Notes under the pieces: generated by a model
Databases searched by the model: none
The model's input: the letters and a program-made list of their open reading frames with translations, nothing else
What the model was told of the DNA's origin: nothing
DNA from: Nanohaloarchaea archaeon B1-Br10_U2g1
GTDB taxonomy: Archaea; Nanohalarchaeota; Nanosalinia; Nanosalinales; Nanosalinaceae
DNA: 17,421 nucleotides
Reading direction: 5' to 3'
Assembly: GCA_001563875.1 (NCBI GenBank)
Contig: LKMN01000016.1
Location: forward strand, 1 to 17,421
Position numbers and translations under genes: made by a program
Part shown: piece by piece, positions 8,696 through 10,742 of the stretch
How positions within the stretch are numbered: the first letter of the stretch is position 1
Layout of the letters: the number at the start of each line of letters is the position of its first letter

Positions 8696-9004
8696 TTAGA
8701 ATAGGTCTCCTAGTCCTTCAGCTGCTTCGTCTTCGTCAGCTTCGTCTTCGTCGTCTTCCTCTTCTTCTTCCTCTTCTTCAGCTTCTTCTGCTCCTGTGTC
8801 TGCTGCTGGTGCTGCTGCTCCGCCTGTTGCTACTGCGGTTTCCATTGCTTCTTCAATGTCTACGTCTTCTAGTGCTGCGACGAGTGCTTTGATTTCTGTG
8901 TCTTCTACTTCTAGTCCTGCTGCGTCGACGATTTCTTGTAGGTTTTCTTCGTTAACTTCTTTTCCTGCTTCGTGCAGGGTTAGTGCTGCGTATACTAGTT
9001 CCAT
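8696..9004 (-). CDS. rpl12: 50S ribosomal stalk protein P1 (L12)
   Basis: N-terminal dimerisation domain [14 protein letters not shown]...[10 protein letters not shown], an Ala/Gly hinge, a poly-Glu/Asp stretch and the C-terminal GLGDLF tail. This is diagnostic of archaeal P1. Confidence 0.9.
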
Positions 9005-9043
9005 GTTGGTTTAACCTCGATACCATGGTTTTCCTATACAAAC

Positions 9044-9052
9044 CTTAAATAA
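9044..9052. promoter_or_regulatory. near-palindromic A/T box CCTTAAATAAGG between the divergent rpl12 and HTH genes
   Basis: It lies about 24 nt upstream of the ATG at 9076 (leaderless, plus strand) and about 40 nt upstream of the rpl12 ATG at 9004. The rpl12 leader carries GAGGT (minus strand of 9015-9019) as a Shine-Dalgarno-like motif. Confidence 0.4.
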
Positions 9053-9075
9053 GGTGTTTACATAATTGAATACAA

Positions 9076-9789
9076 ATGAGTCTGGGTTTTTCAGATCTGC
9101 CGGAAGAGACCAGAGTCAGGCTCTCCCAAGAAGGAGAAAGAGAACTCTGGCACCGCATAAACGAGTTCGGAGGAATCAAAACGTTCTCTAAAGCCTTCAA
9201 CTACTCCCCAACAAAGATGTACAACTGGAAAAACAAGGGCTCATACGTTCCTATAGAGCTTGTAAGAAAAGTGATGGGAAACAACGCATCAGAACAAGTA
9301 ACCGCATACAAAGGGAAAGGAAGAAGCAAACCGGTAGAAAACCCTGTCTTCCCGCTTCCGGAGAACAACGAACTTCTAACCCGTATAGACTGCTCCGTAA
9401 ACCTCTCCAAAGGAACACCTATATACCAAGCAAACGATCGAGGACAGATAGAACGTTTCCAAGAACTTCTAAACCTTTATGGAGACGTACCTCACAAAGT
9501 CTACAACCGTGGCTCGGTCCATGAACTAAGATACTCTAAACACATGCACAAAATACTCCAAAAAATGGATTATACGGAACATTTAGCCGCACAGATAGAT
9601 GAAAAAGGAACTATAAAAGAAAACAGTATAGAGATTGGACAGAAAAAGCTGAATCCTTCAGAGTTCGAAGGACAGCTCCACCACACTGAAAAAAGGCTCA
9701 AGCTCGCTCTTCTTAAAGACGATAAAGAAACGGTAAGAAAGATAATGGTAGAACAGGCTGAAAAAGTCGAGAAAACATTCGGAAAATAA
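9076..9789 (+). CDS. Cro/C1 (XRE)-type helix-turn-helix protein, 237 aa, Lys-rich and non-acidic
   Basis: Residues about 22-65 (LWHRINEFGGIKTFSKAFNYSPTKMYNWKNKGSYVPIELVRKV) fit the XRE HTH pattern. The rest is Lys-rich and I do not recognise a family. It is opposite-strand, with its own TATA, inside the rpl10-rpl12 cluster. Confidence 0.6.
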   Translation: MSLGFSDLPEETRVRLSQEGERELWHRINEFGGIKTFSKAFNYSPTKMYNWKNKGSYVPIELVRKVMGNNASEQVTAYKGKGRSKPVENPVFPLPENNELLTRIDCSVNLSKGTPIYQANDRGQIERFQELLNLYGDVPHKVYNRGSVHELRYSKHMHKILQKMDYTEHLAAQIDEKGTIKENSIEIGQKKLNPSEFEGQLHHTEKRLKLALLKDDKETVRKIMVEQAEKVEKTFGK

Positions 9790-9833
9790 AAAATCAGATA
9801 ATAAAGGAAAAGGAAGGATTTAGAAGAGAAATC

Positions 9834-10742
9834 TTACTCTTCCGTCTCCTCAGAATCGTCGTCCTCAGACTCTTCTACAGCTTCTAAGTCAAGCTGAGAG
9901 TCTACACCGCGAGCGTTGGATGCTGCGTAACCAACCGATTCCTCGATCGTGTCTTCCACAGGAAGACCTTCTGAAACCGCAACGTTCTTCGCCTTTCTTG
10001 AGGCTTCTCCAACAATTGCGGGAGCGGTTGTAGCGTTGACAACTCCTGCGTTAACTGCAAGGTTGAATGCGCCTGAAGCTGCTGCTTCAACATCGGATCT
10101 GTACTGTTCCGTATCGATATCCAGTTGATCGGAAGTGAATACTTCTCCTTCGCTGTAAGCAATCTTCAGATCCAAACCGATCTCTAAAGGCTCAATACCG
10201 ATCTGGTTAAGGATTTCTACTCCATCGTCATCGATAGTCTCTCCTTCCTCAATGATTACACCAGGGTTCTGTACATGGATAGTTCCATCGTCTACCTGTA
10301 CCTGAAGACCTGCGCCCTGTAGCTTTCCAAGCATAGGTCCTGGACCGATACCTGTGTCACCGTCAGGAATCTCTATATCGTTTGGAGCTGTCTCTCCGCC
10401 CTGTGCTGCTGCACTCGTCTTGTTTCTCTGGATAAGTGAGTAGAGCTGGAAAGGATCTTTCTCTGAGAAGATGAATGCTGGCTGCATCGCTTCACTTGGG
10501 TCAAGAGTTGTGATATCGTCTTTCTCCGCGTTCTCTAAAGCGATCTCCATCAGGTTCTTTCTTTCCATCCTGACGTTAGCAAACTCTTTCATCTCTTTCT
10601 TGATCTCTTGAAGCTGTTTGGCCGGAAGACTCTGCATGTCCAGTATACCGACTACTGATGCTTCTTCTATCTGTCCCTGTAACTGTTCAACAATCTGCTC
10701 CTTGTCTTCACGTGTCAGTGTTTTCGGTGTTGGCTGTACCAT
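9834..10742 (-). CDS. rpl10: 50S ribosomal protein L10 / acidic stalk protein P0
   Basis: N-terminal L10 domain (SVVGILDMQSLPAKQLQEIKKEM), a Gly/Ala hinge and an acidic C-terminus. The ATG is 1 nt after the rpl1 stop. It ends ...EESEDDDSEETEE without a P1-like hydrophobic tail. Confidence 0.9.
   Translation of the reverse strand: MVQPTPKTLTREDKEQIVEQLQGQIEEASVVGILDMQSLPAKQLQEIKKEMKEFANVRMERKNLMEIALENAEKDDITTLDPSEAMQPAFIFSEKDPFQLYSLIQRNKTSAAAQGGETAPNDIEIPDGDTGIGPGPMLGKLQGAGLQVQVDDGTIHVQNPGVIIEEGETIDDDGVEILNQIGIEPLEIGLDLKIAYSEGEVFTSDQLDIDTEQYRSDVEAAASGAFNLAVNAGVVNATTAPAIVGEASRKAKNVAVSEGLPVEDTIEESVGYAASNARGVDSQLDLEAVEESEDDDSEETEE

Follow-up and report, generated by a model that had tools for sequence, protein, structure and literature searches.

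We examined why the genes for the ribosomal stalk proteins L10/P0 (rpl10) and L12/P1 (rpl12) are parted by a gene on the opposite strand in an archaeal contig, and what that gene might do there. The DNA analysed, referred to below as the window, is the 17,421-nucleotide (nt) contig LKMN01000016.1 of Nanohaloarchaea archaeon B1-Br10_U2g1 (assembly GCA_001563875.1); the intervening gene of 237 codons is called ORF237 (ORF, open reading frame). The L10-L12 (P0-P1) pair is among the most stable gene adjacencies known. Its separation here, first proposed from the sequence alone (the original prediction), was borne out by the ORF list and by Pfam: rpl10 is the last gene of a secE-spt5-rpl11-rpl1-rpl10 string, and ORF237 lies between rpl10 and rpl12 on the other strand, divergent from rpl12 across a gap of 71 nt and convergent with rpl10 across a gap of 44 nt (Table 1). 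The arrangement is old and retained, and does not represent a recent insertion. The explanation that we favour, tentatively and with a probability of roughly 45%, is that ORF237 is the domesticated, nuclease-dead descendant of a homing endonuclease, and that it may act as a DNA-binding regulator at a promoter shared with rpl12.

ORF237 could be identified only by fold and profile methods, because direct family searches (Pfam, NCBIfam, PHROGs and PDB sequences) returned nothing significant. A search of 5.8 billion proteins gave 23 homologues of 233-240 amino acids (aa) with 41-74% identity, in none of which a Pfam domain or an informative name was found; the family is without a Pfam or NCBIfam model, and its annotations read "hypothetical" or "ArsR family regulator". 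Thirty-one columns of the family alignment are invariant. The AlphaFold2 model obtained from a 23-sequence alignment had a mean predicted local distance difference test score (pLDDT) of 92.4 and a predicted template modelling score (pTM) of 0.86, and the identity of most of ORF237 as a degenerate LAGLIDADG homing-endonuclease fold is well supported. One further helix (aa 60-74) was predicted in the N-terminal domain beyond those listed in Table 1, and the C-terminal part was modelled as a helix (aa 170-177), a beta hairpin (strands at aa 185-187 and 190-192) and two terminal helices. The original prediction of a Cro/C1-type helix-turn-helix (HTH) protein held for the N-terminal HTH and found only faint support for its type: no Pfam HTH model was significant, and ORF237 itself was without a match to Cro/CI/XRE models at E ≤ 1. 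Sub-threshold HTH matches were seen among the 23 family members (YdaS_toxin in 8, Phage_CI_repr in 3, P22_Cro in 1; best E 0.03), and in the Woesearchaeota-type relatives described below the matches to P22_Cro and YdaS (E 1e-5 to 1e-3) fell short of the gathering score. The window proteome is strongly acidic; the isoelectric point (pI) of ORF237 is 9.2, against 4.05-5.1 for the other soluble window proteins, and binding of nucleic acid by ORF237 is therefore plausible.

An exhaustive profile search recovered 86 proteins, including relatives beyond the ORF237 family. The closest homologues are long proteins of 361-499 aa (Woesearchaeota-type; annotated "ArsR family transcriptional regulator"), which carry the same N-terminal module, two LAGLIDADG_3 domains (Pfam matches at E 1e-10 to 5e-9) and a C-terminal winged helix of ArsR/MarR type. 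By profile comparison (hhalign) the ORF237 family aligned with this group over 185 columns (probability 99.7%, E 2.8e-25, 27% identity); an Asgard-type branch (E 3.3e-18) and an intron group (E 1.9e-15) were more distant. Common to the ORF237 family and the Woesearchaeota-type group is an N-terminal module (F..[FL]P...RV.L ... W[KN].K ... P[IL] ... AYKG) followed by LAGLIDADG domain 1, encoded next to rpl12 in both. Unlike these relatives, which have a complete second domain, ORF237 ends after a truncated one; no winged-HTH match was found in it with Pfam.

The active-site residues were compared by hhalign. In the 35 long relatives that were aligned, the Asp-Gly of motif 1 (HLIxDGSV) and the Asp-Asp-Glu of motif 2 (RAxxDDEG) are invariant. 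ORF237 has an invariant Ser107-Val108 in place of the catalytic Asp-Gly, with three residues deleted alongside, and the catalytic Glu of motif 2 aligns with Lys177, a variable position (K/T/E/N) in the ORF237 family; Asp175 and Glu176 are invariant there, one residue out of register. In catalytically active LAGLIDADG enzymes an acidic residue (D/E) ends each LAGLIDADG helix, as do D20 and E117 of I-DmoI (PMC3384342), and ORF237 does not present an acidic residue at the C-terminal end of each helix. Judged from these residues, the ORF237 family is most likely nuclease-dead, and the loss of both metal-binding acids makes it most likely that ORF237 binds DNA but does not cleave it.

The Woesearchaeota-type group has its gene in the same slot. 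In all six contexts that were looked up (P0113, P0116, P0129, P0124, P0140 and P0142) the gene stands between rpl10 and rpl12, shares their strand and is directly upstream of a gene identified as P1 by Pfam, at a distance of 2-12 nt in five and about 35 nt in P0142; its junction with rpl10 is mostly 0-9 nt or a 4-nt overlap. The taxonomic breadth of this statement is that of the six look-ups and one organism label (P0113, NCBI: Candidatus Woesearchaeota archaeon). At locus L036 two small genes part the family gene from rpl10, and rpl12 is still abutted. The constant in both groups is the adjacency of the HTH-LAGLIDADG gene to rpl12: the Woesearchaeota-type form is co-directional and apparently an intact enzyme, whereas the Nanohaloarchaea form is inverted, truncated and, to judge from its residues, inactivated. 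In a neighbour-joining (NJ) tree, ORF237, P0053 and the Woesearchaeota-type group formed a clade, with a bootstrap of only 53%. P0053, a very divergent protein of 237 aa with a degenerate motif 1, groups with the ORF237 family (NJ bootstrap 99%), and may represent a deeper branch of the inverted, nuclease-dead form.

Stalk linkage is not a property of all family members, and this idea was rejected, since two branches are not near rpl10 or rpl12. The first is a 290-aa metagenome branch that shares the N-terminal HTH module (the metagenome scan for further relatives used a 6-sequence alignment). At L041, the only locus of this branch that was checked with Rfam, the large-subunit (LSU) rRNA match spans 897-5146 and the ORF (3495-4367) lies inside the 23S rRNA gene, which is about 1.2 kb longer than the Rfam model; the ORF, whose 290-aa product has kept its LAGLIDADG motifs intact, presumably encodes an intron homing endonuclease. 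This location fits the report that group I introns bearing LAGLIDADG ORFs are common in the rRNA genes of DPANN archaea (PMC6125680). The second is the Asgard-type branch (490-515 aa, one member annotated Heimdallarchaeota), which is unlinked to stalk genes. At L068 (3480-5470) and L069 (3629-5539) an Asgard-type member of 489-512 aa directly follows a small SWIM-zinc-finger gene (97-111 aa), and the two may form a conserved two-gene unit.

Conservation of the locus was assessed with one genome per GTDB species, which gave 24 loci, and with a synteny set of 28 loci that includes metagenome loci. Twenty-three of the 24 species loci are labelled Nanohaloarchaea/Nanohalarchaeota or are uncultured-archaeon metagenome-assembled genomes (MAGs), and the complete genomes SG9, M3_22 and Nanosalina VS9-1 are among them. 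The exception (L014, JBLGBK010000002.1), a 122-kb contig with the typical Nanohaloarchaea AlaRS-rpl12-ORF237-rpl10 region, was deposited as "MAG: Colwellia polaris", a bacterium, and this label is probably a mis-binning or labelling error. A protein identical to ORF237 is encoded on contig LKMW01000053 of GCA_001564195.1 and in a brine metagenome from a soda lake. When the window proteins were used as tblastn queries, every locus had the same order, AlaRS ... rpl12(-), ORF237(+), ... rpl10(-) rpl1 rpl11 spt5 secE, and ORF237 was present at this place in all sampled Nanohaloarchaea, down to 37-45% identity; no empty site and no ORF237 pseudogene were found among the 28 loci. The original prediction of an insertion event or a lineage-specific arrangement is broadly upheld by these data, although the event is neither local nor recent, the arrangement being found at all Nanohaloarchaea loci and the slot being filled in the Woesearchaeota-type group. 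A conserved order around a known housekeeping gene had been named as what would speak against such a reading; the order is conserved lineage-wide, and ORF237 has no known housekeeping function.

ORF237 is under purifying selection. For close pairs the nonsynonymous distance (dN) was 0.11-0.32 and the synonymous distance (dS) was saturated or above 1, giving dN/dS of about 0.07-0.25 (NG86), values that are upper-bound estimates because dS was saturated for most pairs. The NJ trees of ORF237 and AlaRS have 8 of 21 bipartitions in common (0.2 at random, with a maximum of 3 in 500 permutations), the agreement being at shallow nodes; pairwise identities of the two proteins are modestly correlated (Spearman 0.34, against 0.22 for rpl12 and AlaRS), with most pairs saturated. 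The GC content of ORF237, overall and at third codon positions (GC3), is host-like. Synteny, tree congruence, dN/dS and composition therefore indicate that ORF237 is neither a chance ORF nor a recent acquisition. One close pair, L002 (4622-5705) and L012, is unusual: nucleotide identity is 100% for rpl12, 92-97% for rpl10 and about 85% for AlaRS, and only 65-80% for ORF237, with third positions saturated. This may represent unusually fast evolution of ORF237, or the allele may have been replaced by recombination.

The two sides of ORF237 differ in their tolerance of extra DNA. Insertions are mostly on the ORF237-rpl10 side (0 to about 4 kb extra; L001, L015, L016, L018, L021, L026 and L028) and are rare between ORF237 and rpl12, which are directly adjacent except in one lineage (L003, L004 and L005), where an extra 223-aa gene stands between rpl12 and the ORF237 homologue. 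The convergent ORF237/rpl10 junction behaves as an insertion hotspot; among the extra genes are one of the glyoxalase family (L001) and one homologous to window gene 6792-7631 (L003).

In 23 species the spacer between rpl12 and ORF237 follows a fixed plan and is 68-76 nt long at most loci: the rpl12 ATG, about 8 nt, TCACC (GGTGA on the rpl12 strand), a variable stretch, CAACCCTTAAAAA, about 6 variable nt, TGCATAgtTgAtTAcAA, and the ORF237 ATG. The TATA-like box, which had been placed at 9044-9055 and is one position to the left (Table 1), lies at -33 to -22 from the ORF237 ATG and at -50 to -39 from the rpl12 ATG, and the window contains no other copy of it. Most window genes have such a box at about -35 to -22 from the ATG and no leader; ORF237 fits this pattern, in agreement with the leaderless-type promoter originally predicted for it. 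The further suggestion that the box is a candidate common to both genes was strengthened: it is the sole conserved A/T-rich element of the spacer, which fits a single box serving both divergent genes, in contrast to another divergent pair of the window (1589/1676), which has two boxes. Enlarged spacers were seen at L003-5 (821 nt), L008 (166 nt) and L010 (112 nt). At L003-5 and L008 the TATA box and a GCATA..TACAA module are duplicated, with one copy beside each gene; duplication of the module where the genes have been parted supports one box serving both. At L010 a single promoter module is followed by about 44 extra nt. The leaderless window genes have boxes of the type (C)CTTAAA/TTTTTAA, and the genes of the ribosomal string have GGAGG/GGTGA Shine-Dalgarno motifs instead; rpl12 is the only window gene seen with both a promoter box and a Shine-Dalgarno leader.

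Between the box and the leaderless ATG of ORF237 is a conserved 17-nt element (Table 1), a candidate operator or initiator. It was absent from the other window promoters, and no further copies beyond chance were found in the window; it is taken as a candidate operator because it is specific to this promoter and of the size expected for a LAGLIDADG or HTH site. The TATA-like box is also the centre of a 24-bp imperfect palindrome (9037-9060) made up of the 11-nt inverted repeat TACAAACCTTA / TAAGGTGTTTA; flanking inverted repeats of different sequence were seen in L015, L019, L021 and L023 and are not general.

Table 1. Positions of the genes, protein motifs and control elements of the stalk locus within the window, with the evidence for each.
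Feature	Coordinates	Strand	Evidence or remark
rpl12 (L12/P1)	8696-9004	-	Pfam Ribosomal_60s (PF00428), E 1.1e-12
Shine-Dalgarno site of rpl12, GAGGT	9014-9018	-	9 nt before ATG; GGTGA in most relatives
TATA-like box CCTTAAATAAGG	9043-9054		sole conserved A/T box of spacer
17-nt element TACATAATTGAATACAA	9059-9075	+	right before leaderless ATG; 23-species consensus TGCATAgtTgAtTAcAA
ORF237 (237 codons; HTH and degenerate LAGLIDADG)	9076-9789	+	ORF list, homologues, predicted fold
N-terminal helical HTH-like domain	9127-9237	+	predicted helices aa 18-30, 33-41 and 45-54; invariant EFGG, YNWK
Degenerate LAGLIDADG motif 1 (ELLTRIDCSV)	9370-9399	+	hhalign against relatives, invariant columns
Remnant LAGLIDADG motif 2 (AAQIDEKG), then shortened second domain	9583-9609	+	hhalign, alignment, AlphaFold2
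T-rich tract 3' of rpl10, candidate oligo-T terminator	9788-9811	-	T6 at 9788-9793, T4 at 9808-9811
rpl10 (L10/P0)	9834-10742	-	Pfam Ribosomal_L10, E 2.9e-20; RL10P_insert, E 6.9e-14
rpl1 (L1)	10744-11367	-	ORF list and Pfam
rpl11 (L11)	11370-11867	-	ORF list and Pfam
spt5	11902-12339	-	ORF list and Pfam
secE	12344-12547	-	ORF list and Pfam

The explanation that we favour can be set out as a series of steps. An endonuclease gene of the rRNA-intron type would have become free-standing at the rpl10/rpl12 junction in an ancestor; the gene would have been kept, and then inverted and inactivated in the stem lineage of the Nanohaloarchaea, where it would have lost the C-terminal winged helix, part of the second nuclease domain and both metal-binding acids, to be inherited vertically thereafter. 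The inversion would have detached rpl12 from the rpl10 transcript and created the divergent control region of about 70 nt. Its single TATA-like box probably fires both ways, to give in one direction a leaderless ORF237 mRNA and in the other an rpl12 mRNA whose leader, about 15-20 nt long, carries a Shine-Dalgarno site. The protein might bind the 17-nt element located between the box and the ORF237 start, thereby repressing its own gene and modulating transcription of rpl12, in the manner of WhiA.

The regulation by WhiA of its own gene, and the autorepression of I-TevI, are precedents for such a role (PMC3384342). WhiA (DUF199) and ORF237 both join a LAGLIDADG fold to an HTH; ORF237 is likewise chromosomal, free-standing and vertically inherited. 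WhiA has two N-terminal LAGLIDADG domains followed by a C-terminal HTH, whereas the HTH of ORF237 is N-terminal, and none of the Pfam domains WhiA_N, LAGLIDADG_WhiA and HTH_WhiA was found in ORF237, which is also unlike WhiA in its truncated second LAGLIDADG domain, its archaeal host and its place in a ribosomal stalk cluster. Because the nearest relatives of ORF237 are apparently intact archaeal enzymes, its domestication would have been independent of that of WhiA. From the element at 9059-9075 we infer that sequence-specific binding and autoregulation of the WhiA kind may apply to ORF237. Compared with the archaeal LAGLIDADG endonucleases (I-Tsp061I, I-DmoI, PI-PfuI), a sister group shares the N-terminal HTH module of ORF237 and has one copy inside a 23S rRNA gene; unlike these rRNA-intron and intein endonucleases, ORF237 is free-standing, lacks both catalytic acids and is fixed class-wide under purifying selection. 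The Woesearchaeota-type proteins stand nearer, and differ in lying on the operon strand, mostly with spacers of 0-12 nt or overlapping by 4 nt (at L037/L038 the gap to rpl12 is up to about 35 nt), besides their greater length, winged helix and invariant catalytic residues.

That a nuclease-dead LAGLIDADG protein with an HTH can be domesticated is already known from WhiA. This case would differ in the independent archaeal domestication, the reversed architecture, the embedding in the stalk operon in two groups and the visible series of intermediates. The series begins with an endonuclease encoded in a 23S rRNA intron, passes to the Woesearchaeota-type enzyme, which sits in the operon and looks intact, and ends with the Nanohaloarchaea protein, which is shortened and most likely nuclease-dead and whose gene is inverted and has a promoter of its own. 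It would offer a stepwise natural example of homing-endonuclease domestication, parallel to WhiA, in which a single family of selfish genes has left descendants that interrupt the L10-L12 pair in two archaeal groups or more. In the literature searched, we found no paper that joins LAGLIDADG proteins with Nanohaloarchaea, and no described gene between rpl10 and rpl12 in DPANN archaea.

The consequences for rpl12 follow from comparison with the canonical archaeal L11-L1-L10-L12 cluster (Halobacterium, Methanococcus, Sulfolobus). Order and orientation are the same, and the secE-spt5-L11-L1-L10 string of the window is tightly packed: of the spacers of 1-4 nt originally predicted, those of secE-spt5 (4 nt), L11-L1 (2 nt) and L1-L10 (1 nt) were found, and that of spt5-L11 is 34 nt. 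In contrast to the canonical arrangement, rpl12 stands apart beyond an opposite-strand gene, with a box and a Shine-Dalgarno leader of its own, so that it would have neither translational coupling to rpl10 nor feedback through an rpl1-rpl10 mRNA; in Methanococcus, L1 exerts translational feedback on the L1-L10-L12 mRNA. P1 is needed in several copies per P0, and its expression would gain a handle that is independent of P0. The compact, conserved and apparently single-TATA divergent promoter also provides a test case for bidirectional firing in archaea.

Several observations weigh against the regulatory reading, which we hold with less than even confidence. The pI within the ORF237 family ranges from 4.6 to 9.6, so that not every member has a basic surface. 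The 17-nt element may be nothing more than the core promoter or initiator of a leaderless gene, and the palindrome at 9037-9060 was rejected as a conserved operator or hairpin, since it is not kept across loci. Some residual (nicking?) activity may persist through the invariant D175 or E176. Common ancestry of the Nanohaloarchaea and Woesearchaeota-type forms has an NJ bootstrap of 53%. The Woesearchaeota-type gene is translationally coupled within a highly expressed operon, which is odd for a low-copy regulator, and the position beside rpl12 might be left over from the history of the locus and have no bearing on regulation.

A bolder proposal, possible though on balance somewhat unlikely, is that the HTH-LAGLIDADG-rpl12 adjacency goes back to a single ancient insertion, into an rpl10-rpl12 junction that is nearly universal elsewhere, common to Nanohaloarchaeota and Woesearchaeota-type DPANN archaea, and that the protein is a dedicated stalk factor which regulates the supply of P1 or takes part in assembly. 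Occupancy of the slot is a discrete character that can be scored across DPANN and bears on the disputed placement of the Nanohaloarchaeota; a single insertion, if true, would be a rare genomic change favouring their placement within DPANN and not beside Halobacteria. A dedicated stalk factor, if true, would be the first homing-endonuclease domestication tied to archaeal ribosome biogenesis.

ORF237 might instead bind DNA in a role unrelated to the stalk, its position being no more than an old landing site and the rpl12 promoter being ordinary and constitutive. The box at 9043-9054 is of the kind that promoters of this genome have in general, the Asgard-type relatives are unlinked to ribosomal genes, and no regulon is visible, as the window holds no second copy of the 17-nt element. 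This account is nevertheless doubtful: in most of the 24 species the gap on the rpl12 side of ORF237 has stayed at about 70 nt, whereas the rpl10 side takes insertions of up to about 4 kb, and the adjacency to rpl12 is constant in the Woesearchaeota-type loci too, including L036 where rpl10 is parted from the gene. Stability of this junction over phylum-level divergence suggests selection on the ORF237-rpl12 pair.

We consider it unlikely that ORF237 acts on RNA or the ribosome, as a maturase-like protein that would bind rRNA, an rRNA intron or the rpl12 mRNA, or as an aid to stalk assembly, with proximity to rpl12 serving co-expression. LAGLIDADG proteins with maturase activity are established (PMC3384342), LAGLIDADG group I introns are common in DPANN rRNA genes (PMC6125680) and family members are encoded within 23S rRNA; the stalk linkage is deep and common to two groups, with translational coupling of the gene inside an L1-L10-X-L12 unit at the Woesearchaeota-type loci. 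However, a Cro-like HTH, and the ArsR-type winged helix of the relatives, are typical of DNA binders, and because ORF237 is on the opposite strand in Nanohaloarchaea, its co-transcription with the stalk genes has been given up.

Quite improbable is an active homing endonuclease or nickase that homes among Nanohaloarchaea at the rpl10/rpl12 junction. An rRNA-intron-encoded member belongs to the family, Asp175 and Glu176 are invariant, and the low identity of ORF237 beside that of its neighbours in L002 and L012 could hint at allele replacement; yet the two canonical catalytic positions have been lost or vary freely, the orientation and the spacer are constant, purifying selection is strong, and the shallow nodes agree with AlaRS. 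Residence in an intron or intein, or a patchy free-standing distribution, would mark mobility, whereas ORF237 is free-standing and holds the same slot at all 28 Nanohaloarchaea loci, with neither empty site nor pseudogene among them. A recent viral or plasmid insertion carrying a Cro/C1 repressor, as the opposite strand, the N-terminal HTH and the weak YdaS/CI/Cro similarity might suggest, was rejected on synteny and composition, as ORF237 is at the same place in all sampled Nanohaloarchaea, is host-like in GC and GC3, has no flanking repeats beyond the non-conserved palindrome, and gave no PHROG match; no viral or plasmid link was seen.

Downstream of rpl10, the T-rich tract overlaps the ORF237 stop codon, as read from the sequence, and its T6 and T4 runs are plausible termination signals of the rpl10 transcript; this transcript may also read through into rpl12. 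A scan of the window for sigma-70 promoters and hairpin terminators was uninformative for an archaeon. Beyond the ribosomal string, ftsZ (12929-14041, minus strand) has an in-frame TAA at 13844-13846 (…GIEGC*TIAMNTDAQ…), where the relative in L002 has GAA (Glu; …GIEGCETVAMNTDAQ…), a single G-to-T difference. This TAA may stem from an error in sequencing or assembly, vary within the population, or mark a pseudogene.

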